DNA from: Eledone cirrhosa | Lineage: Eukaryota | DNA length: 64,000 nucleotides | Assembly: GCA_964016885.1 (NCBI GenBank) | Contig: OZ024748.1 | Location: forward strand, 33,604,001 to 33,668,000 | Direction of reading: 5' to 3' | Shown: positions 6,464 through 64,000 of the stretch, in pieces | Position numbering within the stretch: position 1 is the stretch's first letter | How the letters are laid out: the number at the start of each line of letters is the position of its first letter | Translations under genes and position numbers: made by a program | The notes under the pieces: model-generated | Seen by the model: the letters and a program-made list of their open reading frames with translations, nothing else | The model's database searches: none | What the model was told of the DNA's origin: nothing

Positions 6464-6506
6464 ACGATGCTGACGATAGCTAATAAGCTTGAAACTAGTA
6501 TATAGT
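6464..6506 (+). ncRNA. Minimal type I hammerhead ribozyme, family A
   Basis: acgatg CTGACGA tagct-aata-agctt GAAA ctag TA tatagt. The core is intact, stem III is the palindrome CTAG, the cleavage triplet is GUA, and stem I is imperfect in this copy. Confidence 0.8.
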
Positions 6507-9151: not shown

Positions 9152-11007
9152 TTAGGGAGAAGTGTTTAGACGGGGTCCGTATTTGTTAATGAAGTAAGAT
9201 TCCCTGCCGATGCGCTGGGTGTGGGTGGCATTATCTTTAAATTTGTAGAGAGGAAAGATTCTGAAGTTGGGATGATTTTGGGCGGGACAGGTATCAATGT
9301 GTTCACTCAGTGGTATTTTCCTGTATTCCCGTATTTTAATTTGGGATCTATGGACAGTCATGCGTTGGCGGAGGCTGTTTTTGGTCTGGCCTATGTATTG
9401 TTCTCGACAACCTGAGCAAGGTAATACATATATTAGATTTTCCGATGCACATGTGAAATTGTGTTTTACTATAAAACGTTGTCCATCTTTGAAATAGAAT
9501 TCCGAACCCTCTATTAGGTTGATGCAAATGCCACAGTTGGGTCTATCGCATTTTTTTACTGTGGGTTTCGTTGTTGTGGTTGGCAGTACTTTGGCATGTG
9601 TTAGGATGTTTTTCATTGACTTGGATTGTCTTTTGCTCTTTATGATATCGTGTGTTCGTAGAATTTGGTTCATTCTATGGTCCTTTTTCAACACAGGGAT
9701 GTTCTGGAGGATGGTGTCAAAGGCCTCATTGTTGAGGGGGTTGTGTGTGGAGATGTATGGAAGAGCTTTTAGTTTCGGTTGATTTACTTTAGGGTGTCTA
9801 AGATCCTGGGTACTGAGTTTTAGGGCACGTTGGATTCCATTGTCAATTAATGATGCAGGGTAGTCCCTGCCTATGAGTGTGTCCTTTAGTTCTTGTAGCC
9901 GTAAGTGGCAGATGTTTTTATTGGAGACTATAGTACAGATTCTCTTGGCTAAGTTGTAGGGAATATTAATTTTAACGTGTCTAGGGTTGCAAGAGTTGAA
10001 GGGTGGAGTCTGTGGGCTTGTAGTATATGTCTGTTTCTATTTTTTTGTTATGGATCTTAATGAGGATGTCGAGGAAGGGGAGTTGTTGATGGCTGTATTC
10101 CATCGTGAAGTTAATATTCGTGTTGAGCCCATTTATAAGGGTGTGAAATTCTTTAAGTTTTTCGATGTTTTCGTGCCAAAGGATGAAGCAGTCATCTAGA
10201 TATCGCTTCCAGTTCCTTTCAATGTGTAAGTGAAGGGTGTTTCCAAATTTGTTTAGGACTTTAGTGTAGAGGGTGATTTCCAGGTATCCCATGACTAGGT
10301 TGGCATAAGTGGGGGCTGTTTTCGTTCCCATAGCGGTCCCAGATTTCTGCCTGTAGGGTTTGTTATTGAAAACGAAGTAATTGTTCTCCAAGATAAATTT
10401 GAGTCCCTCTATCACGAATTCTTTTTTGATGCGTTGTGGGAGTTCATTGTGGAAATTATCCAGCCAGAATTGGATAGCTTCTATTCCTAGGTTGTGGGGG
10501 ATGTTGGAGTATAGGTTGACTACATCGAACGTCACTAGTAGGGTTTGTTCAGAAAGTGGCATATTAGGGAGGTGATTGAGCATATCTAGGTCGTCCCTTA
10601 TATAGCTTTTGATGTGTTTGAGGAAGGGTTTGAGAAGGGTATCAATGAAGTTGCTAAGACGGTGCGTTTCGCAAGCGGGCCTGCTATTATAGGTCTTAAT
10701 TTGAGATCATTGGGTGAGGGGACATTGATGACTATGTCTGTGGCTTCCTTGCATGCCTTACTTATTGATTCGCTTTTATGTACTTTAGGGATACCGTAGA
10801 AAAGGCTGGATTTACTTGTGAAGTCTGTGATGAAGCTGAATTCCTTGTTAGTGAGTCCTTCTTTGTATTGGTTGATTAGAGTTTTTAGGTTTCTCATAAT
10901 TTTCTGTTGATTGTAGTGTTCAGCCTTTTCGTAGTATGTTTCGTTTTCCAAAGTGGAGAGCGCTAAGTTGATATAGAATTCTGTCTCCATTAGGACTACT
11001 GTACTCC

Positions 11008-11010
<3 letters not shown>
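9152..11010 (-). mobile_element. Penelope-like element (RT + GIY-YIG, Neptune-type), 5'-truncated at (TA)n
   Basis: FYGIPKVHK, LRPII, FDVVNLYSNI, GTAMGTKTAP, WKRYLDD, LPFLD, then CDRPNCGIC and NLIYVLPCSGCREQYIGQT. Frameshifted. Confidence 0.93.
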
Positions 11011-11094
<84 letters not shown>

Positions 11095-11096
<2 letters not shown>

Positions 11097-11404
11097 AGTA
11101 TGTATGTATACGTAAATACATATATGTATACAGACGTACAGTAGTATGTATATATATACACACATATATATATGCACGTATCGGTTTACCGAACATTTAT
11201 TATAATGCTCGGTTTGTTTGTAAACAAACAAACAGCCCGAATTACGCCGTACAGTGTTTAGGCAACCACGTCACCTTTTTGTTCAACACTGACACAGGAA
11301 CGATGTACTAGTTTCAAGCTTATTAGCTATCGTCACCATCGTATACCTTCCTGCCAGATGGTTGAACGTCTGAAAGTATATACTTTCCTTATGCATATTA
11401 ACGG
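11095..11404 (-). repeat. Second copy of the hammerhead-bearing family A element (inverse of ~6402-6720)
   Basis: High-identity reverse complement of 6402-6720. It abuts a (TA)n tract. Confidence 0.9.
11300..11342 (-). ncRNA. Minimal type I hammerhead ribozyme, family A (core C->G)
   Basis: The minus strand reads acgatg GTGACGA tagctaataagctt GAAA ctag TA catcgt. Stem I is a perfect 6 bp; the first core base is mutated. Confidence 0.75.
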
Positions 11405-11605
11405 CCTAGTGGTAAGAGTCTTGGACTTACAATCATAATTTCACGTTCCTCCAGTATACTCAAATAGAAATGAGTACCACCAATAGCTGCGATGGACTGG
11501 CGTCCTGTCCTGGGGGGAGTCTTGTACTCTCAGTCACTTCACGCCATGAAACTGGGATAAACACCGGCCAAATGAACCTTCTTGCTTAAGACAGACTTTA
11601 GACTT
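11403..11605 (+). mobile_element. SINE-like element (tRNA-like head, V-domain-like core)
   Basis: ggcctagtggtaagag A-box-like start, followed by aaatgagtacc and gctgcgatggactggcgtcctgtcc. Confidence 0.55.
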
Positions 11606-17480: not shown

Positions 17481-18193
17481 ATACACGGTTTAGACATTAT
17501 ATTTGTAATGTTCTTCACAACGAATTGCGAGTAATTTATAATGATATTTACATATTTGTAATGTTATTCAGCTGTAAATTTATACAATTGTAAATAAAAT
17601 GAAGTTTTGACTGTTAAATTGATATAACTGAATGTATTAAATTATCTCGGGGACTTTCAACGTGTAACACCGGTTTCATTATGAGCGGGGAAACATTGTC
17701 AACGATACCACGTACCTGGTATCTTAATTATAAATTTAATTAATTTAATTATATATTGTGTAACAATTATCTCATGTTAAGGCGAAAGTTAATATTCTGT
17801 AGATAACATAGAGTGAGCTACATGTTTTGGGGTAGGTGTTCCATCACCTACATGATTAAATATTTCATTTCATGAGAAACTAGGTTACATCGTGAATTGG
17901 TTGTTCCACATTTTACAGGACAGTGAGAAATAGGTTTAAATCACCTACATCTGAACAATTAGCTTTCCTGGTCTTTCTTGACTTTACACTTGGACTTGAA
18001 ATATAAAGTACGTATTATTTGTATTGTTAACACAGCATATATTGTGTACTTTTCTACACTACAGGTAAAACAATCCTCATTTATTAAGACACAAACACAC
18101 ACACACACACTCTCTCTTACACTTTCTTATACCGACATCAGACTTACACAGTCATATATCTTCAGAACTTCGAAGAATTGTTCAAGAATTACT

Positions 18194-19443
<1,250 letters not shown>

Positions 19444-20194
19444 TAAAATAAACACAAAATAACACACACTGGTGAAAAACCTTTTACACAGTGTAATATG
19501 TGGGAAATGTTTTTTTCTAACAGTTACTTAGACACAAACACACAGAGGAAGGAAAGTTTTTAACTGTGAAACATGAGATATCCTTCCTCTTACAAATCTC
19601 AACTTATTTTCCACCAATATCAAATGTGATTACTTGGCAGTTTGATAGACTCCAAACATTGCTGGCCATTTTCACAAATATATTTTCATTTGAAGTTAAA
19701 ATCTTTCTCTGATCTATTCTTCACTTTTTGAATTAATTTTAAATCTATGCCAGAAATTTCAGCATTGGTTTGTTAACACCAACATTCCCTGTTATAGCGT
19801 GTGTAATTAAGGGACCCTCTATCACCTGAGGTAATGTCTTCTCTGCTATGATAAATATTAGAGGCCTACACCAATATTCCCTGTTGTAGTGTGTAATTAA
19901 AGGGCCCTCTATCACATGAGGTAATGCTGTGAGTGTCTAGTCTCAAAAATTTTAGAGGGTAACACCAACATTCTCTCTTATAGTAATTGAAGGAGTAGTT
20001 TTACCTGTTTTTGTTTTTCTTTCTGACTCCCTCTTTTATTGATTTTATTGTTTTGTAAATAATTTATTAATTTTTCATAATAAATTTTATAAAGTGTATT
20101 TATGTCCAAAATTTCATTCTATTTGTTGTTAATAAAAGAATTATATTTAAGGAATTTATCAAGTCTGTAACTTCAACTTTTTGTTATTTTGCCA

Positions 20195-20750
20195 CCTAAA
20201 TCTCTGTTACACCATATGTAATGATATCACCTTGTAAGTAGTTTTAATACATCTAACACCCATCTAAATCTCTGTTATTAACACCATATATAATGATATC
20301 ATCTTGTAAGTAGTTTTAATACATCTAACACCCATCTAAATCTCTGTTATTAACACCATATATAATTGTTTCTACTTTTGGCACAAGGCCAGCAATTACC
20401 CAGTTCATTACTGGTACTTTATTGTTATCGATCCCGTAAGGATGAAAGGCAAAGTTAACCTCGGCAGGATTTGAACTCAGAATGGCAAGGACCGTAACTC
20501 TATGCGTCAAAGCATGGCGTCCGACCCTCTACCGATACTGCCAATCCACCGCCCTTAACACCATATATAATGATATCATCTTATAAGTAGTTTTAATACA
20601 TCTAAAACCCATCTAAATCTCTGTTATTAACACCATATGTAATGATATCACCTTGTTAGTAGTTTTAATACATCTAACACCCATCTAAATCTCTGTTATT
20701 AACACCAAATATAATGATATCATCTTGTAAGTAGTTTTAATACATCTAAC
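20195..20750. repeat. ~64-bp tandem repeat interrupted by a SINE
   Basis: Unit ccatctaaatctctgttattaacaccatatataatgatatcatcttgtaagtagttttaatacatctaacac. Confidence 0.85.
20364..20554 (-). mobile_element. Full-length tRNA-derived SINE (Nin/Deu-domain)
   Basis: Reverse complement of the 39628-39811 copy, flanked by the TSD ttaacaccatatataat. Confidence 0.88.
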
Positions 20751-21821
20751 ACAAACACTTCAATTTTTTTAAATGATTAAAATTCTATCACTCTTCGTAT
20801 ATTTTACAACTGAAATTTAGAAATTTGACAATATCCTGGTTATAGGGCCATAATTTTGGTTCTATCATTGTTTCCCTAAAGTAACAAGAAAAATTAAAAC
20901 TTTAGTCATAAAAGATCACAAACTGTTGAAGTATTAGTTTTTTGTTGTTGAACTTGTAGTAATGGAGATTTCTGGCATTCTTGGTCCCTATACCACCTCC
21001 CTACTAACTGTTATCAGGGTGGAGTAAGCCACCCACAGGAATGTCTTGTTAAACTATAGTGGTGGAGACAATTGTCAGACTTGGTCCCTAAACTATCTCC
21101 CTACTAACTTATTAGGGTGGAGTTGGCTACACACAGGAGAGAGCCCCACAAGTTTTAAAAGCTATTGCAACACATCTGACCTGCTGTCCCCCAGGGTAAC
21201 CCCCTTTCACCATTTTGTCTTCTCCTGGGACCATAAGGTAGCTGGTACCTAGTGCTCTCCATGCCAGAGAGAATTCTCCCACACTGTCCAGGTTTGTATC
21301 ATTGGGGGTAGTGATGGTATAGTTTACTGATTGTTGTTAGTCACAGTCCATTATAAGAAATGTTTCAAGAAATATGAAACAATAAATATTATTTGCTAAA
21401 ACTAGTTAAATCTCTATTGATTTGTAAATTAGGCTCAAGAGCAGCAGATTTAGGAGAGGGGAAAAGTTGATTAAATCAACCCCAATACATTACTGGTAAT
21501 ATATTTTATCAACTCTAGAATGTTGAAATAATTATTTGACCTTGGTAGGATTTGAACTGAGAATGTTAAGAACCAGAACAAATACTGCAATGATATTTTA
21601 TCTGACGCTCTACCAATTCTGCCATTCTACCATCTTTGTTTAAATCTATATTAAAGTAAATGTAGAATATGTCCATCTACCATTTGAAATTCTACTGAGA
21701 TAGGCCCAGAACAGCACAGTAGTGTTTCATTAGAACACATACACACACACTTTTTCTTACCTAAATTTCAGTCTTACACTAATATCAATTCTCAACTTTT
21801 AAATATACTTCAAGAATTACT

Positions 21822-22860
21822 ATGGAGGACGTTAAACATTTCTAACGCTTCTGTTTCTACCAATATAGATACAGTTACACAGACATACTGTGGTGAAATA
21901 TGTGGGAAATATTTTGCTTCTAACAGTAATTTAACTGTACACAAAAGAACACATACTGGAGAGAAATCCTTCCACTGTGAAATATGTAGGAAATCTTTCT
22001 CTGAAAATTCTAGTGTTGTAGTTCACAAACGAACACACACTGGTGAAAAACCTTTCAATGTGAAAAATGTGGGAAATCTTTTGCTTGGAATGCAAATCTT
22101 GTTAGCCATATACGTAGCCACACTGGAGAGAAACCTTTCCATTGTGACATATGTGGGAAATCTTTCAGTGAGACAAGTAAGCTTGTTGGGCATATACGTT
22201 TCCACTGTAAAATATGTGGGAAATCTTTTGACAATAGCAGTAATATGATTAAACACAAAAGAAGTCATACTGGAGAAAAACCCTATCATTGTGAAATATG
22301 TGGAAAATATTTCACTGGGAATGTTAGTCTTGTAGTTCACAAATGAACACACAGCGGACAGAAACCTTTTAAATGTGAGAAATCTTTTGCCACTAGCAGT
22401 CATTTAACTGTCCACAAAAGAAAACATACTGGAGAGAAACCTTTCCACTGTGAAATATGTGCAAAATCCTTTGCCACTAGCAGAGAATTGACTGTCCGCA
22501 AAAGAAAACATACTGGAGAGAAACCTTTCTATTGTGAAATATGTGGGAAATCTTTTGCCACTAACAGTCATTTAACTGTCCACAAAAGAACACACAGCGG
22601 AGAGAAACCTTTCCACTGTGAAATATGTGGGAAATATTTTGCCAGTAGCAGTCAGTTAACTGTCCACAAAAGAACACCCACTGGAGAGAAACCTTTCCAT
22701 TATGAAATATGTGGAAAATATTGTGCCACTAACAATAATTTAACTGTACACAAAAGAATACATGCTGGAGAAAAAACCCTTCAACTGTAAAATATATGGG
22801 AAATCTTTTACACACAACTCTGACCTGGTTGACCATGTATGCAGCCACACTGGTAAAATC
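21822..22860 (+). pseudogene. C2H2 zinc-finger pseudogene, paralogue of 18194-19363
   Basis: Same start context (caagaattactATGgaggacgttaaac). TGEKP fingers are broken by frameshifts and stops. It shares 3' flank sequence with 19560-19740. Confidence 0.88.
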
Positions 22861-23264
22861 CCTTTTGTAGCTGATATAGTCACAAACAAATATTTATGCA
22901 TGTAACCGAATGTGAGACTGTAAGACAGACCCCTCTCCCCATCTTGTCTGGGAAGATGGAAGACCCACTTTAGTACTGACTTGGACTATGTAGACCTGTT
23001 CAACCCTTGTTAACAGGGAAAGTGGGCTTTAAACAATGAAGATTATAATCACAAACACACACACTTGAGGGAAACCTTTTAAGTATAAAATGTCAAACAT
23101 CCTTTTACAAATCTAAAGCTATTGTCCACCAACATTGTGAGGGAACCCTTAGCAGTTCTATAAAGTCCAAACATTGCTTGTCATTTTTGTAATGATATTT
23201 TTAGTTGGAATTATATTTTTATTAATATCTGATTCTTGTCTTCTTGAATTCATTCTTAATCATA

Positions 23265-23640
23265 ATCATCATCATCATTTAACATCTATCTTCCACGCTA
23301 GCATGGGTTAGATGGGAATTGTCCCACTTGAGGCAAGATTGATTGGGTGACCGTGTCTTGCTCGTATAGGACTGTATCTGGCAGGGTTTCTACGGCTGGA
23401 TGCCCTTCCTAACAGCAACCATATTTACAGTGTGGACTGGGAGCCTTTTCACTGCGTCTCCTACAGGACAACTTAACAGCATGGACTAGGTGCTTTTTTG
23501 TTGTGACACCTATGCAACCTCTTTAGTTTGGACTGGATGTTCTGTGGTAGCAACATAACTTTACAGAGAAAGGGTGGGGTTGGTGGGAGTGGGACGATGG
23601 AGTTGGGTTGTATATTTGGTTAAGAGGTGCCTACTGCTAG
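23265..23640 (-). mobile_element. SINE/LINE-tail repeat (related copies at 47310-47610 minus and 51240-51540 plus)
   Basis: (cat)n tail, aacatctatcttccacgctag and ctacggctggatgcccttcc are shared between the copies. Confidence 0.65.
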
Positions 23641-23689
23641 TAAAAACCTACTGCTAAGCTACTGGTTAAAATATTTGTTAATCATGTAA

Positions 23690-24010
23690 GAGTGTATAGC
23701 TCGGAGATCAGATAGTCGCTCCAGGTAGAGCCGCTACTTCTCTGAATTGAGAGACCACAGTTCTGATACTATGGACATATGGTCAGAATATTTCAGGAAA
23801 GAATTGCTGGACAGATTTTACAGGCAAAACAAACCGGCAGGTCACCCAGAGGTAGACTCCGAGCAAGATGGTTGGATAACGTCTATGAACTTGGCTGGTC
23901 TCAGTTAGAGATTCAGCTGTATCAGTTGAAGATGGTTGCTTTAGACAGGATCCACTGGAAGGAGTGTTTGTGGACTTTGCCCCCACGACACCCTCAGGAA
24001 TAAGTGGGCG
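23690..24010 (+). mobile_element. LINE RT C-terminal fragment (related copy at ~25905-26690)
   Basis: RPQF*YYGHMVR...GRSPRGRLRARWLDNV. Confidence 0.7.
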
Positions 24011-24059
24011 ATACATCCGCAGTTCCATGCTTGTATGGATTTGAAGGGTCATTTTCAGC

Positions 24060-25895
<1,836 letters not shown>

Positions 25896-34180: not shown

Positions 34181-37100
34181 ATCCCTAGGGTCCGATGGAA
34201 GGCTTACCACTTCGACAAAGGACCAGCTATTAACACAAGAGAATTTTCTAAGGAGAATTACGGATTCAAATCCTGCAAAAACCCTCCAAACGACCCCATA
34301 CTGGATGCCTTCGAGCTGGACCTTATGAATATGATAAGTGGAGCTAAATTCAAAAAAAGAACACACCACAACAAATTACAAAATGACATCAATACACTAC
34401 TAAAAAAACTAAAAGACACCAACGGTATCATAGTAAAGTCAGACAAAACATCAAACGTATATTCTATGGACCTTAACACATACAATAATTTCATTCAGCG
34501 TGAACTACACAAAAAATACAAAAAAAAACAAATGAATCCACACTCACCAGCATTAACGTAGAGGGCCTTAGAATAGTAAATAAACTCGGAATATCCGATA
34601 GAACTGAGCCTCTAACCCCATGTAACCCCACATTCAACCTTAAGGATCACAAAAATAATTTTGAAACAAATCCTACTATCAGATTAATATGCCCATCTAA
34701 GTCGGATATAGGTAAAATCAGCAAGAATATTCTAGATAGGGTAATCGCACAAATAAAAGGAAAACTAGAAATCAATTTATGGGGAAACACTAACGAGGCG
34801 ATAGAATGGTTCAATAAAATAAGAAATAGACAGACATGTAACTTCATACAATTCGATATAAACGATTACTACGCGACCATATCCCCAGCCACCCTGGATA
34901 AAGCGCTTATATTTGCCCCAAATAACTCCGATCTTACCCCTGATGAAATTGAAATAATAATAGCGGCTAGAAGGACTATCATAAAATTTGAAAATAGCTA
35001 CTGGGTAAGAAAAGATAGGATAAACAGCTTTGATATCACAATGGGATCGAACGCAAATCACTGACGTCGTGGCGTTATTTATTACACACAACCTACATAA
35101 ATAATTCAGTAACCTCCAAGGAGGGATTTATAGAGATGACACGCTCCTTATAGCTAGGAACTTAAATAACCAGAGCATGGAAAGATTAAGAAAAAACATT
35201 AGAACATTCTTAAAAAAACTAGGCCTAAGTATTATCTACGAACTGAATCATAAACAGGCAAACTTTCTAGATGTGACTCTAAATCTAAAAACGGGATTAA
35301 TAGAACCCTTCCACAAAAATAATGAGAATCTGGCCTACATTAGTTATAATTCAAACCACCCCAGATCCATAATCAGATCCATAGCACGTAGTATATCCCT
35401 TAGAATATCCCGCTTATCCTCAAACCTATAAATTGTTAATGAACATGCTAACTATTATAACGCGGCATTACATAGGGCCGGACACAAAGAAAAGCTGCAG
35501 TTTATAACGGATAAGGACAACTCAAACAAACCTACTAACACTGACACCAACCGCTCACACAAAAATAGAGGTAACAGGACTAGACATAGAGTTAGGCACG
35601 TAGCACCTAGAGTAAGTGGTCCAAACACCAATAATGTAAACCCTGAGAACAATAGAAGAATTAGAGAAAGAAAATACCTGTGGTTCAATCCAATCTTCAA
35701 CTCCTCTGTAAAAACTAGACTGCCTTCTACGTTCTTTAAACTAATAGATAAACACTTCCCTGCATCACATAGCTATCATAAGATCCTCAATAGAAAAACT
35801 ATAAAACTCTCATACTCTACGGCTGCAAATATAGAATCCCACATACGCAAGATCAACCACAGAAATACCTCTAGGGAAACCGCTCCACCTATGCGCAACA
35901 GAGCACCAGATTCTAAACATAAACACATCACAGTATCACAACCGCAAATGCATACAAGCACGCAGCAGCAAAATTTCAACGGGCACGAATCACAACCCAC
36001 TTATAGCAGTGTACAAAACAGCAGTGCGAAAGCTGCACGGAATAACACCTCAAACTGCAATTGTCACCTACCAGATAGGTGCCCATTGGCGAACAGATAC
36101 CTTGATTCGAGCCTAGTGTACATGTGTACGGTGAACTCGGGCAACTCCACTTGGCATTACATTGGATCCACCGCGTGTACTTTAAAAAAAAGATGGTATG
36201 TGCACAGACACTCGATGAAGAACCGTGCACTAATAGGTTCTGCAGCCCTCGCCAAAAAAATCTGGGAACTTAAGGACAATAACATCAACTACAATATCAA
36301 CTGGTCGAGGTTGTCGGCCGCAAGGGCATATAGTACCGGTATGTCCTATTGTAGGCTCTGCGACCTTGAATTACTGTATATCCTTAGGAACGAAAAAAGG
36401 TTACTCAACAACAAGATAGAAAGTTCAATTTTCTGCAGACACAGGATCGCTACTAAATTCACAAGATTTAAGCAACCGTGAATCGAACCAACATAACTTA
36501 GCATTCAACATATGAAATCTACACTCTCACACAGACCACCACAGAACTATAATATTCTTTAAGCAGCTTCTAGCCACCTTAATTCTATACCATAGTAATG
36601 TCTGCAAATATCTTATCAACCCATAAATATATCCTTCTCAGCTGCTGTCAACACAACTTCCTCACCCTTGGTTCTCAACAGATGAACTTAAATCCAAGTA
36701 CATTATTATAATACTACCACAGCCCGTAAAACATCACCTTCCTCCTGTTGTTATAATTGTAGTCAGCATGTTTTCTCTATATATATATATACTGCTTCCT
36801 TAACCTCTGTATTAACCTACCTATTATATTGCTACTATGTTGGTGTTATCTTATACATGCATGTTATTGATGATGTGAGAGCTAAACAACCCCATAATTC
36901 GAACTAACAATCCCTTCACTTAAATATTGAATCCGCTTTACACCACATAAAAATTACTATCCTCACTACAATGAAAAAAAATGTTATCTGTCAGATAATA
37001 AATAATTCTTACGGTCAGCAAACCTACGGTAAAGGAAATGGTACATTGTTTAAAGCCCCGGCTTATCTCTACACTATATATAATACACCCCATGACAGCT

Positions 37101-44994: not shown

Positions 44995-45048
<54 letters not shown>

Positions 45049-45171
45049 GGAGGTGAGTTTTATTGTAGTACAATAAAGCAATGCAGATATCGGATAAGAA
45101 GCACTCTACAGTTTGTAGGACTGGAGTATGCATAATATAAGATCAAAAGATGGTTAAAGGAGTTCAATGTA

Positions 45172-45237
45172 TTTTATTATGGCATTTCAAAAACAAACAT
45201 CATCATGCAATAATATTTGTGTTTTCATCAGATAAAA
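45172..45237 (-). ncRNA. Minimal hammerhead, family D (1-nt deletion in stem III)
   Basis: The minus strand reads ttttat CTGATGA aaacacaaatattatt-gcat-gatgatgtttgttttt GAAA tgcca TA ataaaa. Confidence 0.8.
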
Positions 45238-46990
45238 CAGGAGAACATGATATGAAGGCTAAAAAACACTTGTGGATAGTGCAGTTTTAAATCAACATAT
45301 GAAAAGTGGTTTTAGATTGATGTGTGATATTGGGAAAAAATATTTTATTTAGAGAGGGGGGGGGGTTGGAAAGGATGAAAAGGGAAGGAGATGAGAGGGA
45401 GAGATGGGTGATAGAGAGAAAGAGATAGTTTTTATAACTGAGAGGAGATATATTTTTTACATAGAGAGGTTGAAAACCGTTGGAAGATACTGTATAAATT
45501 AAAAATTTTGAAAATTAACGAAGGGAGGATATGTGCGAGGAAAAAATATTTTATTTAGGGGGGGGGGGCGGTGAAAAAAAGGGGGAGGAGATGAGAGTGA
45601 AGGTGGAGAGGGAGAGATGGATGATAGAGAGAAAGAGATAGTTTTTATAACTGAGAAAAAGATATATTGTTTTAACATAGAGAGGTTGGGAACCGTTGGA
45701 AGATAATGTATAAATTAAAGGAATTTGAAAATTAACGAAGGGAAATTATGTATGAAGATAGAGAGAAAAAAATAATAATTGTGGATGAATATTCTAACGT
45801 CAAAAAAAGAAATGTATGTATTGTGGCAATTTCAAAATTAACGAAGAGAAAAATTATTAAGGTTTGTGTGTAGAAGGATTTGAGAAAAATAATGTGAAGT
45901 TAAAGTTTGTATATTGGTTGAATTGATAATATATGCGAATAAAGAGTTAATATGTATTAATAATGAGTTCGTTGATGGGGAGAAAAAAATAATAAATTAA
46001 GGATGAAATTGAGATTAAAAAGATTTATGATAGAGAGAAAAAATAATAATGATTGCGGATGAATATTCTAACGTCAAAAAACAACAAATGTAACAAATTA
46101 CCCTTATTCTATCTTCACCTCATAACATACACATTTGTTGTTTTTTGACGTTAGAATATTCATCCGCAATCATTATTATTTTTTCTCTCTATCATAAATC
46201 TTTTTAATCTCAATTTCATCCTTAATTTATTATTTTTTTCTCCCCATCAACGAACTCATTATTAATACATATTAACTCTTTATTCGCATATATTATCAAT
46301 TCAACCAATATACAAACTTTAACTTCACATTATTTTTCTCAAATCCTTCTACACACAAACCTTAATAATATTTCTCTTCGTTAATTTTGAAATTGCCACA
46401 ATACATACATTTCTTTTTTTGACGTTAGAATATTCATCCACAATTATTATTTTTTTCTCTCTATCTTCATACATAATTTCCCTTCGTTAATTTTCAAATT
46501 CCTTTAATTTATACATTATCTTCCAACGGTTCCCAACCTCTCTATGTTAAAACAATATATCTTTTTCTCAGTTATAAAAACTATCTCTTTCTCTCTATCA
46601 CCCATCTCTCCCTCTCCACCTTCACTCTCATCTCCTCCCCCTTTTTTTTTCATCCTTTCCACCCCCCCTCCCTAAATAAAATATTTTTTCCTCGCACATA
46701 TCCTCCCTTCGTTAATTTTCAAAATGTTTAATTTATACAGTATCTTCCAACGGTTTTCAACCTCTCTATGTAAAAAATATATCTCCTCTCAGTTATAAAA
46801 ACTATCTCTTTCTCTCTATCACCCATCTCTCCCTCTCATCTCCTTCCCTTTTCATCCTTTCCACCCCCCCCTCTCTAAATAAAATATTTTTTTTCCAATA
46901 TCACACATCAATCTAAAACCACTTTTCATATGTTGATTTAAAACTGCACTATCCACAAGTGTTTTTTAGCCTTCATATCATGTTCTCCTG

Positions 46991-47057
46991 TTTTATCTGA
47001 TGAAAACACAAATATTATTGCATGATGATGTTTGTTTTTGAAATGCGCATAATAAAA
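46991..47057 (+). ncRNA. Minimal type I hammerhead ribozyme, family D (intact)
   Basis: ttttat CTGATGA aaacacaaatattatt-gcat-gatgatgtttgttttt GAAA tgcgca TA ataaaa. Palindromic TGCGCA stem III; AUA cleavage after 47051. Confidence 0.88.
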
Positions 47058-47089
47058 TACATTGAACTCCTTTAACCATCTTTTGATCT

Positions 47090-47134
<45 letters not shown>

Positions 47135-51815: not shown

Positions 51816-54531
51816 AGTGAATCAGTGGTGGTGTGGTGGACATGAGGTAGAGTGAATGAGTGGTGGTGGACATTATGTGGAGTGAATCAGTGGTGGTGGA
51901 CATTAGGTGGAGTGAATCTGTGGTGGTGTGGTGGACATTAGGTAGAGTGAATCAGTGGTGGTGGACATTAGGTGGAGTGAATCAGTGGTGGTGGACATTA
52001 GGTGGAGTGAATCAGTGGTGGTGGACATTATGTGGAGAGAATCAGTGGTGGTGGACATTAGGTGGAGTGAATCAGTGGTGGTGTGGTGGACATTAGGTAG
52101 AGTGAATCAGTGGTGGTGGACATTAGGTGTAGTGAATCAGTGGTGGGGGACATTAGGTGGAAAGAATCAGTGGTGGTGTGGTGGACATTAGGTAGAGTGA
52201 ATCAGTGGTGGTGGACATTAGGTGGAGTGAATCAGTGGTGGTGGACATTATGTGGAGTGAATCAGTGGTGGGGGACATTAGGTGGAGTGAATCAGTGGTG
52301 GGGGACATTAGGTGGAAAGAATCAGTGGTGGTGTGGTGGACATTAGGTAGAGTGAATCAGTGGTGGTGGACATTAGGTGGAGTGCATCAGTGGTGGTGGA
52401 CATTAGGTGGAGAGAATCAGTGGTGGTGTGGTGGACATTAGGTAGAGTGAATCAGTGGTTGTGTTATGGACATTAGGTGGAGTGAATCAGTGGTGGTGGA
52501 CATTAGGTGGAAAGAATCAGTGGTGGTGAACATTATGTGGAGAGAATCAGTGGTGGTGGACATTATGTGGAGAGAATCAGTGGTGGTGTAGTGGACTTTA
52601 GGTAGAGTGAATCAGTGGTTGTGTTATGGACATTAGGTGGAGTGAATCAGTGGTGGTGGACATTAGGTGGAGTGAATCAGTGGCGGTGGACATTATGTGG
52701 AGAGAATCAGTGGTGGTGTGGTGGACATTAGGTAGAGTGAATCAGTGGTTGTGTTATGGACATTAGGTGGAGTGAATCAGTGGTGGTGGACATTAGGTGG
52801 AGTGAATCAGTGGTGGTGGACATTAGGTGGAGTGAATCAGTGGTGGTGGATATTAGGTGGAAAGAATCAATGGTGGTGTGGTGGACATTAGGTAGAGTGA
52901 ATCAGTGGTGGTGGACATTATGTGGAGTGAATCACTGGTGTTGGACATTAGGTGGAAAGAATCAGTGGTGGTGTGGTGGACATTAGGTAGAGTGAATCAG
53001 TGGTGGTGGACATTAGGTAGAGTGAATCAGTGGCGGTGGACATTAGGTGGAGTGAACCAGTGATGGTGGACATTAGGTGGAGTGAATCAGTGGTGGTGGA
53101 CATTAGGTGGAGTGAATCAGTGGTGGTGGACATTAGGTGGAGTGAATCAGTGGTGGTGGACATTAGGTGGAAAGAATCAGTGGTGGTGTGGTGGACATTA
53201 GGTAGAGTGAATCAGTGGTGGTGGACATTAGGTGGAGTGAATCAGTGGTGGTGGACATTATGTGGAGTGAATCAGTGGTGGTGGACATTATGTGGAGTGA
53301 ATCAGTGGTGGTGGACATTAGGTAGAGTGAATCAGTGGTGGTAGACATTAGGTGGAGTGAATCAGTGGTGGTGGACATTAGGTGGAGTGAATCAGTGGTG
53401 GTGGACATTATGTGGAGAGAATCAGTGGTGGTGTGGTGGACATTAGGTAGAGTGAATCAGTGATTGTGTTATGGACATTAGGTGGAGTGAATCAGTGGTG
53501 GTGGACATTATGTGGAGTGAATCAGTGGTGGTGGACATTATGTGGAGTGAATCAGTGGTGGTGGACATTAGGTGGAGTGAATCAGTGGTGGTGTGTTGGA
53601 CATTAGCTGGAGTGAATCAGTGGTGGTGGATATTATGTGCAGAGAATCAGTGGTGGTGTGTTGGACATTAGCTGGAGTGAATCAGTGGTGGTGGATATTA
53701 GGTGGAAAGAATCAATGGTGGTTTGGTGGACATTAGGTAGAATGAATCAGTGGTGGTGGACATTAGGTGGAGTGAATCAGTGGTGGTGGACATTAGGTGG
53801 AGTGAATCAGTGATGGTGGACATTAGGTAGAGTGAATCAGTGGCGGTGGACATTAGGTGGAGTGAATCAGTGGTGGTGGACATTAGGTGGAGTGAATCAG
53901 TGGTGGTGGACATTAGGTGGAGTGAATCAGTGGTGGTGGACATTAGGTGGAGTGAATCAGTGATGGTGGACATTAGGTAGAGTGAATCAGTGGCGGTGGA
54001 CATTAGGTGGAGTGAATCAGTGGTGGTGGACATTAGGTGGAGTGAATCAGTGGTGGTGGACATTAGGTGGAGTGAATCAGTGGTGGTGGACATTAGGTGG
54101 AGTGAATCAGTGGTGGTAGACATTAGGTGGAGTGAATCAGTGGTGGTGGACATTATGTGGAGAGAATCAGTGGTGGTGGACATTAGGTGGAGTGAATAGT
54201 GGGGGTGGATATTAGGTGGAGTGAATGAGTGGTGGTGGACATTATGTGGAGGGAATCAGTTTTGGTGGACATTGGGTAGAGTGAATCAATGGTGGTGGAC
54301 ATTAGGTGGAGTGAATCAGTGGTGGTGGACATTAGGTGAAGTGAATCAGTGGTGGTGTGGTGGACATTAGGTGGATTGAATCAATGGTGGTAGACATTAG
54401 GTGGTGTGAAACAGTGGTGGTGTGGTGGACATTGGGTAGAGTGAATCAGAGGTGGTGGACATTAGGTAGAGTAAATCAGTGGTGGTGTGTTGGACATTAG
54501 GGAGAGTAAATCAGTGCTGGTGGACATTGGG
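51816..54531. repeat. 30-bp G-rich satellite, block 1
   Basis: Unit gtggacattaggtggagtgaatcagtggtg, with 35-bp variants. Confidence 0.97.
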
Positions 54532-54962
54532 TGTTTAGGAAATAAATATCGGTGTACATGCAACATAATATAAAAGACAGTAAATACCGGCGTGTGGTAA
54601 TAAAGTTTTTACTTCATGGAAGTCAAAAGGCATTAAATATAAGGGTTTGTTACCCGATGGTCATAATACAAGGCTGAAGTTGGTAGAAACATCTTAGGCT
54701 CTCATCTCAGGCTGCAAGCTGCATTGTGCTTGGTAACGAAAGGGTCGTCAAGAAGGAATCACAAGCTATGGTCGAAGGTGTTACCACTTCAGGAATCAGG
54801 AGGCGAGAGAGAGATTTCGTGGTAAACCGCTCCTTTTATATCTGTTGACCGGAAGTGACCACCAGGGAGTCTGGTCAATCCCAAAGGGAAGCAACTCCAC
54901 CTACTTCCTGTCTAGAGAGCAGTGATGAGATTGTCATGGCAGGGGAGGCAACTCTTACTACA
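54532..54962 (-). repeat. 3' LTR of the young Gypsy element
   Basis: TGTAGTAAG...CCTAAACA on the minus strand, preceded by the PPT GGCGGGAGATAA. 54792-54962 is identical to 59190-59360. Confidence 0.85.
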
Positions 54963-55585: not shown

Positions 55586-58450
55586 TCACATAAAAATAGT
55601 TTGGCAGAACTTTTTGGGCCAGTGGACTCTCCGACCGGAACGGGTCGTAGTCTTGTATGTAGGTGAAGGTGGGGCAGAAGGAGCAGGTGTATGCACAAGA
55701 GAGAAAGATTGGGGTATTTGTGGCTCGGGTGTATGAGCGTCATTGTGTGCCCTTTTCAGTCTATCCACCGAAATTGTCTCTCTGGACCCCTTAACGTCTA
55801 CAGTGAAATGTTTGTCAGTGCGTGTTAACACACGGTAGGGTCCAGAGTATGGTTGTGTGAGGGGTGGTCTCACAGCATCGTTCCTTACGAACACATGGGT
55901 CCACGAGGCAATGTCCCTCGGGACCGCAGGTTTTACAGTTTGCTTCCTCGTATCCATCGGTGGCAGGTCCTGTAAATAAGAACGCAGACGGGATACGTAG
56001 GAAAGCGGATCTTGGAAAGCAACATCAACAGGGGCAAACATTTGCCCAGGCAACGCTAGAGGAGCACCGTAAATTAATTCGGCCGGGGAGAACCCAAGGT
56101 CCTTCTTTATTGATGACCGAATTCCTAATAACACAATAGGAAGGTACTCGCTCCAACGTTGAGAGTCTGGATAGGCGCGAAGAGCGGCCTTTAATTGGCG
56201 GTGGAATCGTTCCACCATTCCATTTGAAGCAGGATGATAGGCTGTGGTCCGAATCCGTTGAGCTCCAATTATTTTGGTGAGCTCAGAGAAGAGATGGGAC
56301 TCGAATTGTCTACCGCGGTCTGTGGTGAGTGTAGTTGGTACCCCAAAGCGGGTAATCCACCCTGATACCAGGGCACGTGCTACAGTCTCAGCAGTCATGT
56401 CTTGTAAAGGGATGGCTTCAGGCCATCGCGAAAAACGATCGACACACGTCAATAGGTAGGAATATCCACTGCTGAATGGCCAAGGTCCAACGATGTCAAT
56501 GTGGATGTGTTGGAACCGAGCATCTGGAGTGGTGAAAGTACCCAGTGGAGTCCGGATGTGTCTATGGATCTTCGATTTCTGGCAAGCGATACAGGAACGG
56601 CACCAAGCAGCAATGTCGCGCCTCATATTAGGCCAGAAGAATCTGGCTGTTATGAGTTTAACTGTGGCAGCAGATCCTGGATGAGAAATGTTGTGCAGAG
56701 CCAGGAACACAATTCGACGGTGAGTCTCAGGAACAAGTGGTCGTGGTGCATCAGTGGATACATCACAAAGAATCTGCCTGTCGGTGGTGGACAAGGGCAG
56801 ATATTTGAAAATGCAAGTCGCAAATTCAGTAGAAAGAGTGTCCAACGATTGGAGTGCAGGTTGGTCTTCAGCTAAACGACCTAAGTCGATATCCTGGGAT
56901 GACGAGATGGAGCTAATTGGCAAACGTGATAATGCGTCTGCAACTATGTTGTGCGAGCCGGCAATGTGCTGGATATCGTTTGTAAATTGTGAAACGTAGT
57001 CCAGGTGCCTTGTCTCTCTGGGCGAATATCTGTCGGCTTTGGCCCTCAAAGCGAAGGTCAACGGTTTGTGGTCGGTAAAAACCGTAAAATTTCTCCCCTC
57101 AAGGATATGGGAGAAATGTTTCACCGACAGATATATGGCTAATAATTCCCGCCCAAACGTGCTATAACGCGTTTCTGCTGGTTTCAACTTCCTCGAGAAA
57201 AATGCCAAAGGTTGTTGGTTTTCAGCGTAAGACTGCTGTAAAACTGCTCCCACAGCGGTATCAGATGCATCAACACAAAGCGAAAGCTTGGCCTCTGGTA
57301 CCGGGTGGGCTAGCAAAGAAGAACTAGCGAGGGCTGTCTTGGCAGACTGGAAGTCCTGAAGCTGTCCTTGTGTCAAGGAAATGTCTTCATTCTTCTTACG
57401 ACGATTTTTTAAAATATCAGTAAGGGAAGATAGCCAATTAGCACAATGAGGAATGAAACGCGTATAGAACTTGATTAGGCCTAAGAAGTGACGCAACTGG
57501 TGAAGTGTAGTAGGCGGCGGTAACTCCTGTATGGCTTGAACTCGCTGAGGGAGCGGCCTAATACCTTCGGCGTCGATGAGGTGGCCTAAAAAATGTAGGG
57601 AAGTGGAACCGAAAACACACTTTGCAGGATTCACGCGAACGCAGTAATCCTGAAGTCGCCGAAGTAAGAGAAGCATGTGGCGCATATGCTCTTCCGGAGA
57701 GGAACTAGCGACGAGAATATCGTCTATGTAAGCATAGACGAAGTCCTGACCACGCGTGACCTCGTTTATGAACCGCTGAAAAGTGCTAGCGGCGTTCCTG
57801 AGTCCGAAAGGCATGGTCAAAAATTCGAATGATCCGAAAGGGGTTGTAATCGCAGTTTTCGGAATATCCTCCTTCCTGACCGGAATTTGGTGGTAGGCTC
57901 GCACTAAATCTAACTTAGAAAAAATCTTACACCCCTGCAGTGAAGATGCAAAATCGTGGAGATGGGGAATGGGATACCTATCCGGGACGGTCATGGCATT
58001 TAACCTCCTATAATCCCCCGTCGATCTCCAGTCGCCGGAAGTTTTGGGCACCATGTGTAACGGTGAAGCCCAAGGACTCGTAGATGGGCGAATAGTGCCC
58101 AGCTGCAGCATATGGTCGAACTCGGACCGTGCTGCCTTTAATTTTTCCGTCGGTAAGCGGCGTGGACGCGAAAACACTGGGGCACCGGTGGTGGAAACGA
58201 AATGTTCGGTCGAGTGTGTTGAGTCAGTGACTCGAAAATTTCCATCCGTGAGCTCCGGGAAAGAACCCAGTAACGCATGGTAAGCGTCACCAGCGGCAGC
58301 GATAAAGAACACGGAGCTGACTATTGGGGCATTGGCTTCCTGGCCATGAATTGAAAAGCCGGTGATGTTATCTACCAGGCGTTGGCCACGGACGTCCACA
58401 GTTAAAGAGAAGTTGTGGAGGAAATCCGCTCCTAAGATGGGATATGGCAA
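55586..58450 (-). CDS. Gypsy pol polyprotein (protease tail, RT, RNase H, integrase), uninterrupted 954 aa
   Basis: [43 protein letters not shown]...C..C, HIDIVGP, TDRGRQF, GMVER, GPY. Confidence 0.93.
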
Positions 58451-58455
58451 ATCGG

Positions 58456-59189
58456 CAGCAGAACAAGCCAGAGAATTTATTTTTGCAGCACTCTTCCTGT
58501 GAGAAAATCCATTCGGAGGTTGGAAATTTCACGATATACCACAGAACAGAAACCACCTGCATTCATTCTCTGGAACACACTTTCTTTCCTGCTGTCATGT
58601 GATTGCACACCTGTGAACTATATTTTGTACATTTAAACTTTGAGCTCTTCTCTTACTTTATTACATTGTATCTTTGGGTGATGGATAGATAGATGTCCAG
58701 TCGTTCTCTGGCCAAGAGCGGTTGGCTACCTTGACATCTATCATTGATTTTTGCAAACATTCTTTTGTCGTAATTTTCATGCCTGTTACAACATTCTCGC
58801 CAACTTGCTACATATGTCATTCGATTTTTATATTCTAAAATTCTGGCGGGAGGTTATGTAGCAGTAGCCTCCCTTGTGACTCACAACTCCAATAGATTAA
58901 CATCTAGACGGGAAGTAGAACCCTTTCTGTAACATCCGGTCAGAACCCTATAAAACTAACAACTTTAAGTTCTCACCCTCTCATTAGCCCTTCCGGCGCC
59001 TGGCCTTCGCCAGATGTCTTCTGCCAGCCTGCGTTTGCCTGGCAATCAAAACGGTAACTACTAACTTTGCTTCATTCTTTCGTTTATTCATTGACATGTC
59101 AACTATACTGTTAAATTGTTGATTAAATATTATACACACAAACCATGTCTCCTTGTTACATTTCATACAACCCAGTTTTACGCTATATT
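58456..59189 (+). mobile_element. Inverted 3' end (3'UTR + PPT + LTR) of a related Gypsy element
   Basis: 58456-58856 is a diverged reverse complement of 54963-55267. PPT ggcgggaggtta is followed by TGTAGCAG at 58857, with TATAAAA at ~58949. Confidence 0.8.
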
Positions 59190-59360: not shown

Positions 59361-62300
59361 GGTGGAATGAATCAGTGGTGATGGCCATTAGGTGGAGTGA
59401 ATCAGTGCTAGTGGACATTAGGTGGAGCGAATCAGTGTTGGTGAACATTAGGCAAAGTTTTAGAATGTTAGTATCAGTGTATATATATTATTAAAATAAA
59501 CAATAATTTTCAGATGCATGTTGTGACATAGTTGTACTTCACAGAAGTCAAATAAATTGATAGAAATAATTTTTACCACATGTTGATGGTGAGTTGGTCG
59601 CAACTCCCAGACTGGGGAGTGTTGAGAAGAGAGAAAGATGACAGGACTCATCTCATCATAAGAATGGAGTCATCTCTAGGGAGAGAAAGCAGGAATCGTC
59701 TCTTGGTAATGTCGAAAGTGGTCTTTTCGGCTGCGGCGTAGGAAGTGAGATAGAACGCCTTAAGTCCTCAAATATATAGTCCCCAGGGGGGCGTGACTCC
59801 ATTTAGTACATGGATCTGCCACTGGCTGTCGCGACAGTCTCAAAGGGACGGAACTCCTATACGTGCTGAGTTCCAGCCGTAAGGGGTCGCTACAAGTGAA
59901 TCAGTGGTGGTTGACATTAGGTGGAGTGAATCAGTGGTGGTGGGGTGGATATGAGGTAGAGTGAATCAGTGGTGGTGGACATTAGGTAGAGTGAATCAGT
60001 GGTGGTGGACATTAGGTTGAGAGAATCAGTGGTGGTGGACATTAGGTGGACTGAATCAGTGGTGGTGGGCATTATGTGGAGTGAATCAGTGGTGGTGGAC
60101 ATTATGTGGAGTGGACATTATGTGGAGTGAATCAGTGGTGGTGTGGTGGACATTAGGTGGAGTGAATCAGTGGTGGTGTGGTGGACATTATGTGGAGTGA
60201 ATCAGTGGTGGTGAGGTGGACATTAGGTGGAGTGAATCAGTGGTGGTGTGGTGGACATTAGGTAGAGTAAATCAGTGGTGGTAGACATTATGTGGAGAGA
60301 ATCAGTGGTGGTGGACATTAGGTGGAGTGAATCAGAGGTGGTGGATATTAGGTAGAGTGAATGAGTGGTGGTGGAGATTATGTGGATGGAATCAGTTGTG
60401 GTGGACATTGGGTGGAGTGAATCAGTGGTGGTGGACATTTGGTGGAGTGAATCAATGGTGGTGTGGTGGACATTAGATGGAGTGAATCAATGGTGGTAGA
60501 CATCAGGTGGTGTGAAACAGTGGTGGTGTGGTGGACATTGGGTGGAGTGAATCAGTGGCGGTGGACATTAGGTGGAGTGAAACAGTGGTGGTGTGGTGGA
60601 CATTAGGTGGAGTGAATCAATGGTGGTGGACATTAGGTGGAGTGAAACAGTGGTGGTGTGGTGGATATTGGGTAGAGTGAATCAGAGGTGGTGGACATTA
60701 GAAAGAGTGAACCAGTGGTGTTGTGGTGGACATTAGATGGAGTGAATCAGTGGTGGTGGACATTAGGTAGAGTAAATCAGTGGTGGTGGACATTGGGTGG
60801 AATGAATCAGTGGTGATGGCCATTAGGTGGAGTGAATCAGTGCTAGTGGACATTAAGTGGAGCGAATCAGTGTTGGTGAACATTAGGCAAAGTTTTAGAA
60901 TGTTAGTATCAGTGTATATATATTATTAAGAAAAACAATAATTTTCAGGTGCATGTTGTGACATAGTTGTACTTCACGGAAGTCAAATAAATTAATAGAA
61001 ATAATTTTTACCACATGTTGATGGTGACTTGGTCTCAACTCCCAGACAGGGGAGTGTTGAGAAGAGAGAAAGATGACAGGACTCATCTCTTCGTAAGACA
61101 GGAGTCATCTCTAGGGAGAGAAATAGGAATCGTCTCTTGGTAATGTCGAAGGGGTCTTTTTGGCTGTGGCGTAGGAAGTGAGATAGAACGCCTTAAGTCC
61201 TCAAATATATAGTCCCCAGGGGGTCGTGACTCCATTTAGTACATGGATCTGCCACTGGCTGTCGCGACAGTCTCAAAGGGACGGAACAACTATACGTGCT
61301 GAGTTCCAGCCGTAAGGGGTCGCTACAAGTGAATCAGTGGTGGTTGACATTAGGTGGAGTGAATCAGTGGTGGTGGGGTGGATATGAGGTAGAGTGAATC
61401 AGGGGTGGTGGACATTAGGTGGAGAGAATCAGTGGTGGTGGACATTAGGTGGAGTGAATCAGTGGTGGTGGACATTAGGTGAAGTGAATCAGTGGTCGTG
61501 AACATTAGGTGGAGTGAATCAGTGGTGGTGGACATTAGGTGGAATGAATCAATTGCGGTGGACATTATGTGGAGAGAATCAGTGGTGGTGGTCATTAGGT
61601 GGAATGACTCAGTGGGGGTGGACATTATGTGGAGTGAATCTGGTGGTTTGGTGGACATTAGATAGAGTGAATGAGTGGTGGTGTACATTATGTGGGAGTG
61701 AATGAGTGGTGGTGGACATTATGTAGAGTGAATCAGTTGTGGTGGACATTGGGTAGAGGGAATTAATGGTGGTGGACATTGGGTGGAGTGAATGAGTGGG
61801 GGTGGACATTAGGTATGATGAATCTGGTAGTTTGGTGGACATTAGATACAGTGAATGAGTGGTGGTGGACATTAGGTGGAGTGAATCAATGGTGGTGGAC
61901 ATTAGGTGGAGGGAATCAGTGGTGGTCGACATTAGGGAGAATGAATCAGTGGTGGTGGACATTAGCTGAAGTGAATCAGTGGTTGTGGACATTAGGTGGA
62001 ATGAATCAGAGGTGGTGAGGTGGACATTAGGTGGAGTGAATCAGTGGTGGTGGACATTAGTTGGAGTGCATCAGTGGTGGTGGACATTAGGTGGAGTGAA
62101 TCAATGGTGGTGTGGTGGACATTAGGTGGTGTGAATCAGTGGTGGTGGGCATTAGGTGGAGTGAATCAGTGGCGGTGTGGTGAACATGAGGTAGAGTGAA
62201 TCAGTGGTGGTTGACATTAGGTGGACTGAATCAGTGGTGGTGGACTTTAGGATGACTGAATCAGTGGTGGTGGACATTAGGTGGAGTGAATCAGTGGTGG

Positions 62301-64000
62301 TTGACATTAGGTGGAGTGAATCAATGGTGTTGTGGTGAACATGAGGTAGAGTGAATCATTGGTGGTGAACATTAGGTAGAGGGAATCAGTGGTGGTCGAC
62401 ATTAGGGAGAATGAATCAGTGGTGGTGGACTTTAGGTGGAGTGAATCAGTGGTGGTGTGGTGAACATGAGGTAGAGTAAATCAGTGGTGGTGGACATTAG
62501 GTGGAGTGAATCAGTGGTGGTTGACATTAGGTAGAGTGAATCGGGGGTGTTGGCCATTACCTAGAGTAAATCAGTGGTGGTGGGCATTAGGTGGTGTGAA
62601 TGAGTGGTGGTTGACTTTAGATGGACTGAATCAGTGGTGGTGGACTTTAGGTGGAGTGAATCAGTGGAGGTGGACATTAGGTGGTATGAATCAGTGGTGG
62701 TGTGGTGAACATGAGGTAGAGTAAAACAGTGGTGGTGGACATTAGGTAGAGTGAATCGGTGGTGGTGGGCATTAGGTGGAGTGAATCAGTGGAGGTGGAC
62801 ATTAGGTGGAGTGAATCAGTGGTGGTAGACATTAGGTGCAGTGAATCGGTGGTGGTGGCCATTAGCTAGAGCAAATCAGTGGTGGTGGACTTTAGGTGGA
62901 GTGAATCAGTGGTGGTGGACATTAGGTGGAATGAATCAATGGTGGTGGACATTAGGTAGCGTGAATCAGTGGTGGTGGACATTAGGTGGAGGGAATCAGT
63001 GGTGGTGGACATTAGGTAGAGTGAATCAGTGGTGGTGGACATTTGCTGCAGTGAATCAGTGGTGGTGGACATTAGGTAGAGGGAATCAATGGTGGTGTGG
63101 TGAACATAAGGTAGAGTGAATCATTGGTGGTGGACATTAGGTGGAGGGAATCAGTGGTGGTGGACATTAGGTAGAGTAAATCAGTGGTGGTGTGGTGGAC
63201 ATTAGGTGGAATAAATCAGTGGTGGTGGACATTAGCTGGAGTGAATCGGTGGTGGTGGACATTAGCCGGAGTGAATCAGTGGTGGTGGACATTAGCTGGA
63301 GTGAATCAGTGGTGGTGGACATTAGGTGGAGTGAATCGGTGGTGGTGGACATTAGGTAGAGTAAATCAGTGGTGGTGTGGTGGACATTAGGTGGAATAAA
63401 TCAGTGGTGGTGGACATTAGCTGGAGTGAATCGGTGGTGGTGGACATTAGCCGGAGTGAATCAGTGGTGGTGGACATTAGCTGGAGTGAATCAGTGGTGG
63501 TGGACATTAGGTGGAGTGAATCGGTGGTGGTGGACATTAGGTAGAGTAAATCAGTGGTGGTGTGGTGGACATTAGGTGGAATAAATCAGTGGTGGTGGAC
63601 ATTAGCTGGAGTGAATCGGTGGTGGTGGACATTAGCCGGAGTGAATCAGTGGTGGTGGACATTAGGTGGAGTGAATCGGTGGTGGTGGACATTAGGTAGA
63701 GTAAATCAGTGGTGGTGGACATTAGGTGGAGTGAATCAGTGGTGGTGGACATTAGGTGGAATGAATCAGAGGTGGTGAGGTTGACATTAGGTGGAGTGAA
63801 TCAGTGTTGGTGGGGTGGATATGAGGTAGAGTGAATCAGGGGTGGTGGACATTAGGTGGAGAGAATCAGTGGTGGTGGACATTAGGTGGAGTGAATCAGT
63901 GGTGGTGGACATTAGGTGATTTGAATCAGTGGTCGTGAACATTAGGTGGAGTTAATCAGTGGTGGTGGACATTAGGTGGAATGAATCAATTGCGGTGGAC
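59361..64000. repeat. 30-bp G-rich satellite, block 2, with higher-order units
   Basis: Same monomer as block 1. A ~1.43-kb unit is repeated from 59361 and ~60796, and 185-bp units occur at 63167-63540. Confidence 0.97.

Follow-up and report, generated by a model that had tools for sequence, protein, structure and literature searches.

A near-perfect 2-kb palindrome with hammerhead motifs in Eledone cirrhosa as a very probable head-to-head pair of Penelope-like element ends, with a candidate two-primer origin

The window that we analysed, a 64,000-nt stretch of the Eledone cirrhosa genome (contig OZ024748.1, positions 33,604,001 to 33,668,000), contains a palindrome of about 2 kb that bears a hammerhead motif on each strand. 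An earlier note on this DNA had taken it for a distinct non-autonomous fold-back ribozyme element. The locus thus raises two questions, namely to what kind of element the palindrome belongs, and how its two arms came to lie head to head.

We observed that the palindrome is real: in a pairwise alignment of the inverted arms 45132-46091 and 46131-47097, 951 positions match, 6 are mismatched and 13 columns contain gaps. It is also devoid of ORFs, as had been claimed, with no ORF of at least 150 aa overlapping it in a scan of the window, and the (TA)n tracts reported at or near its two ends were both found with TRF. The proposed start of the element, 45132, had to be moved. The true insert spans 45046-47097, with (TA)n on both sides, and an 86-nt tail at 45046-45131 had been overlooked. 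From left to right the order is (TA)n, the tail and the left arm on the minus strand, AACAA, the right arm on the plus strand, and (TA)n again (Table 1). The length of 39 nt given for the spacer between the arms was right, but 34 of these nucleotides (46097-46130) belong to the element and occur in the right copy alone, being missing from the left arm, and AACAA at 46092-46096 is the sole true filler. The palindrome is nearly symmetrical because its two 5' truncation points lie only 34 nt apart; in other head-to-head pairs of the family these points are tens to thousands of bases apart.

Table 1. Features of the insert and its flanks, in positions of the window
Feature	Position	Strand	Remarks
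(TA)n target tract, left side	44999-45045		TRF
86-nt PLE tail	45046-45131	-	Left end only; contacts (TA)n directly
Left arm: 5'-truncated 3' UTR/pLTR (very probable)	45132-46091	-	Reference about 2715-3690
Left hammerhead motif	45172-45237	-	Stem III palindrome short by 1 nt (UGCCA)
Junction filler AACAA, 5 nt	46092-46096		Makes a local AACAAAT duplication
Right arm: untailed, 5'-truncated 3' UTR/pLTR (very probable)	46097-47097	+	Reference about 2674-3690
CATATG containing A46928	46927-46932	+	Mirror copy 45296-45301
Predicted type I hammerhead motif, family-typical	46991-47057	+	Stem III is the UGCGCA palindrome, dimer type
(TA)n target tract, right side	47090-47132		TRF; element boundary ambiguous around 47097

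A search of the animal's own genome (3.0 Gb) recovered many copies of the arm at 92-100% identity, and other copies continue upstream of 46097 with common sequence that runs into an ORF. The other copies thus turned out to be 3' ends of an autonomous Penelope-like element (PLE), the outcome that the earlier note had named as speaking against its proposal, and a distinct non-autonomous element is not supported. The repeat unit of this PLE is 3,690 nt long, and the copy L075:5106-7520 encodes an unbroken ORF of 804 aa. Partial tandems that form pseudo-LTRs (pLTRs) are found in three copies (L064, L075 and L098), and in tandem copies the tail seen at 45046-45131 runs from the pLTR to the beginning of the ORF (L075 4969-5054, L064 4183-4268). 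The family inserts in (TA)n and bears its 3' hammerhead in sense orientation. It is young, with copies 92-99% identical and at least one unbroken ORF. The 3' UTR also holds an internal tandem duplication of ~200 bp (about 83% identical) together with shorter repeats, at 45333-45751 and in mirror image at 46471-46892.

The AlphaFold model of the 804-aa ORF, made with an alignment of 22 sequences, had a mean pLDDT of 82.9 and a pTM of 0.80, and Foldseek placed telomerase TERT chains at ranks 1-4. The ORF carries the motifs RWT, DKT, YRDD, CxC-x5-C, CxxC and CxH, in the forms RLRWT (a variant of RWK), HSDKT, CNCRIKNKC, CNLC and CLH; CNCRIKNKC is present in most copies, and the long copy of L075 has Y at the last C. 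Pfam gave no match to the ORF itself. Among the 22 aligned members, RVT_1 was matched in 3 and GIY-YIG, weakly, in 3, and the NLIYECK...TYFG motifs of the ORF align with these homologs. A PDB sequence search with the alignment returned just weak matches to retron RTs (E 0.016 or worse). Between the RT and the nuclease lies a disordered stretch rich in Asn, Thr and Pro (L075:6860-7090, residues about 585-661, pLDDT <50), which is reminiscent of the N-rich inserts of A. vaga Penelopes in the available text of PMC3846280.

By eye, the motifs of the ORF agree with the alignment rows of the Hydra clade, whose features (DKT, RWK, a CxCX5C linker, CxxC and CxH) are given in the available parts of Craig et al. 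2021 (PMC8557442). As described there, elements of this clade (C-terminal EN+; Hydra-1_Obim, Penelope-13_HM) resemble ours in having a single ORF with an RT and, as a putative feature in our case, a GIY-YIG-type domain at the C terminus, in DKT, CxCX5C and CxxC/CxH, and in a 3' hammerhead and insertion in (TA)n; Penelope-13_HM is also listed there with hammerheads on the two strands and with an inverted copy that is truncated at its 5' end. There are differences too. In the same source Hydra elements are generally <3 kb, a figure that is descriptive and not diagnostic, whereas the unit here is 3.69 kb with a 3' UTR of ~1.1 kb; the clade has RWK where our element has RWT; and PLE tails are usually 30-40 bp, compared with 86 nt here. 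Together, these observations make it very probable that the arms are the 5'-truncated 3' UTR (pLTR) of an autonomous, Hydra-clade-like PLE. The earlier pointer to PLE pseudo-LTRs, with dimer-type hammerheads and inverted copies, was right.

The plus-strand hammerhead that had been claimed at 46991-47057 has its motif parts in place: stem I (46991-46996/47052-47057), CUGAUGA (46997-47003), GAAA (47040-47043), UGCGCA (47044-47049) and an AUA site, with a cut predicted at 47051/47052. It matches the conserved core CUGANGA/GAAA/NUH with stems I-III, and its stem II is long (about 15 bp). The minus-strand motif, described as its twin, is damaged in the stem III palindrome, with UGCCA for UGCGCA. 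Among 70 distinct ends of the family, 62 have the core with UGCGCA, one has UGCCA (the left arm here), one has UGUGCA, and six are truncated or mutated. The predicted self-duplex of the UGCCA left motif has an energy of -0.9 kcal/mol, compared with -10.5 kcal/mol for UGCGCA. Rfam, which the earlier note had named as a check, gave no match to the hammerhead family at the gathering threshold or at E<=10, just chance matches to hairpins and miRNAs, and the ribozyme call therefore rests on motif anatomy and family context.

On that footing the right motif is predicted to be a type I hammerhead of the dimer form, intact in the form typical of the family. In the available text of Cervera and de la Pena 2014 (PMC4209133), the minimal hammerheads that PLEs bear in metazoans are likewise of type I, with a long stem II and a short palindromic stem III that implies activity as a dimer. 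The Hydra hammerheads listed in the accessible part of PMC8557442 are unlike ours in sequence. Dual hammerhead motifs on opposite strands, 100-700 bp apart, are described for S. mansoni in the same partial text of PMC4209133; the spacing here is about 1.8 kb, and the motifs are known from sequence.

We evaluated the abundance and pairing of the family ends using exact patterns for the 3' end. At least 8,500 ends were found genome-wide, 3,766 tailed and 4,806 untailed. Pairing was surveyed in the first-listed matches within the initial 100 Mb of C1, 81 of them tailed and 100 untailed, which form 127 clusters: 76 single, 50 head-to-head and one tail-to-tail. One tailed and one untailed outer end were present in 45 of the 50 head-to-head clusters listed (p=2e-9 against 0.5). 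The same-type pairs among these matches comprise three untailed/untailed and two tailed/tailed, and one untailed/untailed pair encloses a tailed/untailed pair. In a set selected by similarity, all 17 pairs had one tailed and one untailed end. Head-to-head pairs are therefore routine in this genome, and the arrangement is already published. In the available parts of PMC8557442 and PMC3846280, inverted copies truncated at the 5' end, with a tail on one side only, are presented as typical of PLEs. They are described, head to head and with short overlaps or palindromes at the junction, for D. virilis Penelope, A. vaga Pen2a and Naiads (PMC2377424, PMC3846280 and PMC8557442, each in its available text). 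Unlike those examples, the locus here has an ORF in neither arm, and its truncation points are so close together that a near-perfect palindrome results.

The family also yields a class of small palindromes. Among the 45 mixed pairs listed, 21 have 332-383 nt between their end motifs and are palindromes of ~420 nt, both arms of which stop near the CATATG equivalent of 46927-46932; genome-wide, 842 perfect palindromes are centred on CATATG. On C1, ~420-nt palindromes and short copies that start from one base, in many cases preceded by an additional G, are abundant (L081-L094 and L099-L130); they correspond to 46928-47097 plus the tail. Their varied junctions suggest that the short palindromes were formed anew at each insertion, and some of the ~420-nt palindromes may be self-propagating, non-autonomous units. 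Amplification of one MITE-like master was rejected as their source, since the junctions differ, although re-mobilised copies could be among the 842 perfect ones. The suggestion of a fold-back class of elements largely fails for the 2-kb palindrome and retains some ground in these small ones.

It could still be asked whether the 2-kb palindrome moves as a unit, as a distinct fold-back element with a self-cleaving, rod-like RNA. The near-perfect symmetry and the hammerhead motif on each strand would fit this, as would the many short palindromes of the family, some of which are possibly sources of further copies. We nevertheless consider it very improbable. When recurrence of the palindrome was checked, the junction at its AACAA centre was present at this locus alone among 40 scored candidates; arm lengths vary freely across loci, the short palindromes have varied junctions, and the left motif is damaged. 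As for the RNA, the arms are indeed predicted to pair as had been proposed, but this pairing would bury both hammerheads, and the viroid-like character that the earlier note had seen in such an RNA is not supported. In the predicted fold of a transcript spanning the palindrome, 66 of the 67 hammerhead bases on the plus strand and 66 of the 66 on the minus strand are paired with the far arm, and the ribozyme would therefore not fold in the read-through hairpin. We also rejected a non-LTR retrozyme. Retrozymes are similarly ORF-less and PLE-related with a type I hammerhead (bioRxiv 10.64898/2026.07.22.740005 and PMC7229834, as far as their available text goes), but the former source describes them as head-to-tail tandem arrays, whereas the palindrome is an inverted pair without tandem units, and TRF with periods up to 500 found no tandem array in 45046-47097.

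A fold-back read chimera, that is, an artefact of assembly, is very improbable. Long inverted repeats do trouble assemblies (PMC8557442, in its accessible part), and no independent read or contig is shown across the junction; pieces bridging 46092 were absent from four DNA runs (contigs and RAD-seq, with the same individual not established), a result that we regard as neutral. However, the arms differ by 6 substitutions and several indels, their asymmetry coincides exactly with the tail boundary of the family, the flanks are not mirrored, and the same architecture is found at dozens of loci.

We observed that the copies of the family begin at one preferred position. Copies starting exactly at A46928 number 2,111 after G, 1,581 after T and 570 after A, while 4,209 copies read through this position, and the neighbouring control positions have 391 and 20 copy starts. 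This common start of more than 4,000 copies, frequently preceded by an additional G, is new. The G:T ratio before A46928 is 4-fold above that at the next base (Fisher p=2.5e-9), the control being the first 100 listed of the 391 control copies. Upstream continuation was absent at all 30 G loci, and an inverted partner adjoins 29 of them, with L107 and L108 being one insertion. The partner arm also accounts for the G in 8 of the 30 G junctions, and the classification of filler at these junctions is crude, in that mismatches inflate the filler class. At L107/L108 a G-rich start lies at one base on both arms of one locus. Loose ends of independent RAD reads also lie at 46928 (run X19). In the available text of the respective papers, untemplated 5' G in L1 and SVA is ascribed to copying of the cap (PMC3287187), and PLE start sites are placed in the pLTR, with an internal promoter (PMC2377424, PMC8557442). 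We infer from these patterns that A46928 is a putative capped start of sense transcription.

Ribozyme cleavage was rejected as the origin of the RNA 5' end. A non-A base precedes the hammerhead cut site in just 38 copies, the visible junctions, and A-preceded junctions are invisible to this count. A pile-up of reads at 47042 was not taken for ribozyme cleavage, its most likely cause being a RAD restriction site that variant copies carry. Three tiny perfect palindromes are centred on the cut site (C13:11451385-11451432, C27:10621704-10621751 and C1172:29185-29232), and these could stem from occasional copying of cleaved RNA or from truncation by chance.

We further compared the two arms of individual pairs. 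Of 405 subfamily-informative sites, 11 differ between paired arms, compared with 74.5 expected from unlinked copies; this covers 21 comparisons, of which one joins two separate insertions (2 of its 6 sites) and in which two loci are counted twice. At the palindrome locus, 0 of 26 informative sites differ. This likeness could also be explained by two RNAs of one source gene, or by later gene conversion. Among 17 pairs, the arm that extends further 5' is the untailed one in 10, the palindrome locus being one of these, and the tailed one in 7. At six further loci an untailed copy has an inverted tail fragment alone as its partner. It is a new observation that paired arms have subfamily variants in common and that each arm often has sequence missing from the other.

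The published model for such pairs (Arkhipova et al. 2013; PMC3846280 and PMC8557442, in their available parts) is fold-back self-priming on an antisense template through a hairpin intermediate, with resolution by the endonuclease giving the one-sided tail. The variants common to both arms fit this model, as do the 842 perfect palindromes centred on CATATG. However, copying of the first arm cannot yield both a tail and extra 5' sequence, and each arm has sequence missing from the other at the palindrome locus and in 10 of 17 pairs. Since either arm may be the longer and tail-only partners exist, a fold-back of fixed order does not fit, and the G-rich start on both arms of L107/L108 fits a capped sense RNA. 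Trimming after the fold-back could rescue the model, and we regard self-priming as possible but doubtful.

The explanation that we favour, somewhat above an even chance, is a two-primer mechanism for the PLE inverted pairs. The nuclease of the element would cut both strands of (TA)n, and each DNA 3' end would prime a separate cDNA on one source RNA, with starting points at the end of the tail for one cDNA and 86 nt upstream for the other. The template would likely be uncleaved, capped sense RNA from A46928, on which a cDNA primed in the upstream pLTR would halt at the capped 5' end, and one primed in the downstream pLTR would halt early, at random points. At the palindrome locus both cDNAs would by chance have halted 34 nt apart. 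The cDNA 3' ends would then be joined via short filler or microhomology. The complete version, in which both (TA)n strands prime on one capped, uncleaved sense RNA at start sites 86 nt apart and this replaces antisense self-priming, appears to us about evenly balanced between true and false. In the available text of PMC11167929, a PLE protein acted on both strands in vitro, cutting and extending them with no need for ribozyme cleavage; it used uncleaved RNA, initiated internally at two sites bounding the tail, and was predicted to dimerise.

Against the two-primer mechanism stand the 5 same-type pairs in 50 and the 76 single exact-match ends in 127 clusters, among the matches listed. Moreover, in two of three measured copies that are both inverted and tandem (L075 and L098), the upstream pLTR starts about 630 nt above the equivalent of A46928, at reference 2895 and 2891 respectively, and read-through RNA or a template jump would therefore be needed. 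In the twin priming of L1, cDNA synthesis on a single RNA is primed from both strands of the target, and an inversion results. The proposed PLE pairs are alike in having two target strands prime on one RNA, but in L1 the pieces derive from different parts of that RNA, whereas here the same 3' region is present in both arms, which differ by the tail. We found no paper with a two-primer model of PLE inversions in the open-access literature, subscription journals being mostly outside the search. If the mechanism is true, a single process would account for the inverted repeats in head-to-head order, for the tail on one side and for the large group of ~420-nt palindromes that end at the cap, and the thousands of junctions in the family would be a record of how PLEs integrate.

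The window holds further repeats. A second PLE lies at 5955-6720 and 9152-11405, with Pfam matches on the minus strand to RT at 9981-10703 and GIY-YIG at 9152-10033; inverted pieces nearby adjoin TA-rich tracts (I6, I9 and I12), and this region is possibly an insertion of the same inverted kind. Degenerate ORF pieces on the plus strand, at 34504-36481 and 4114-4662, have the Hydra-like motifs LKDHK, RLI.PSKSD and a CNC linker, and probably belong to other PLE families of the Hydra type. A cluster of C2H2 zinc-finger arrays occupies 17963-25724, with an 84-bp repeat and HTGEKP linkers. Elsewhere (55586-58528 on the minus strand, 291-3864 on the plus strand, 51833-54533 and 59895-64000) are a 980-aa ORF and other fragments, which from their motifs we take to be LTR-retrotransposon pol-like and Helitron-like (Rep/helicase) respectively, and long satellite arrays with a 30-bp repeat.

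As a PLE insertion this locus is ordinary, and it is most likely an inert copy, dead on arrival, which would at most be a source of dsRNA and siRNA if it is transcribed through. The family is more informative. The formation of inverted repeats and tails is named as unresolved for PLEs in the available text of PMC8557442, and this family, which is young and very abundant, gives unusually clean statistics on the process. It also offers a precise start site and a pair of priming sites, all of them predicted, together with a candidate protein. Small-RNA silencing from inverted Penelope copies is described in Drosophila (PMC3681739), and in this genome hundreds to thousands of hairpin-forming inserts could feed such silencing.
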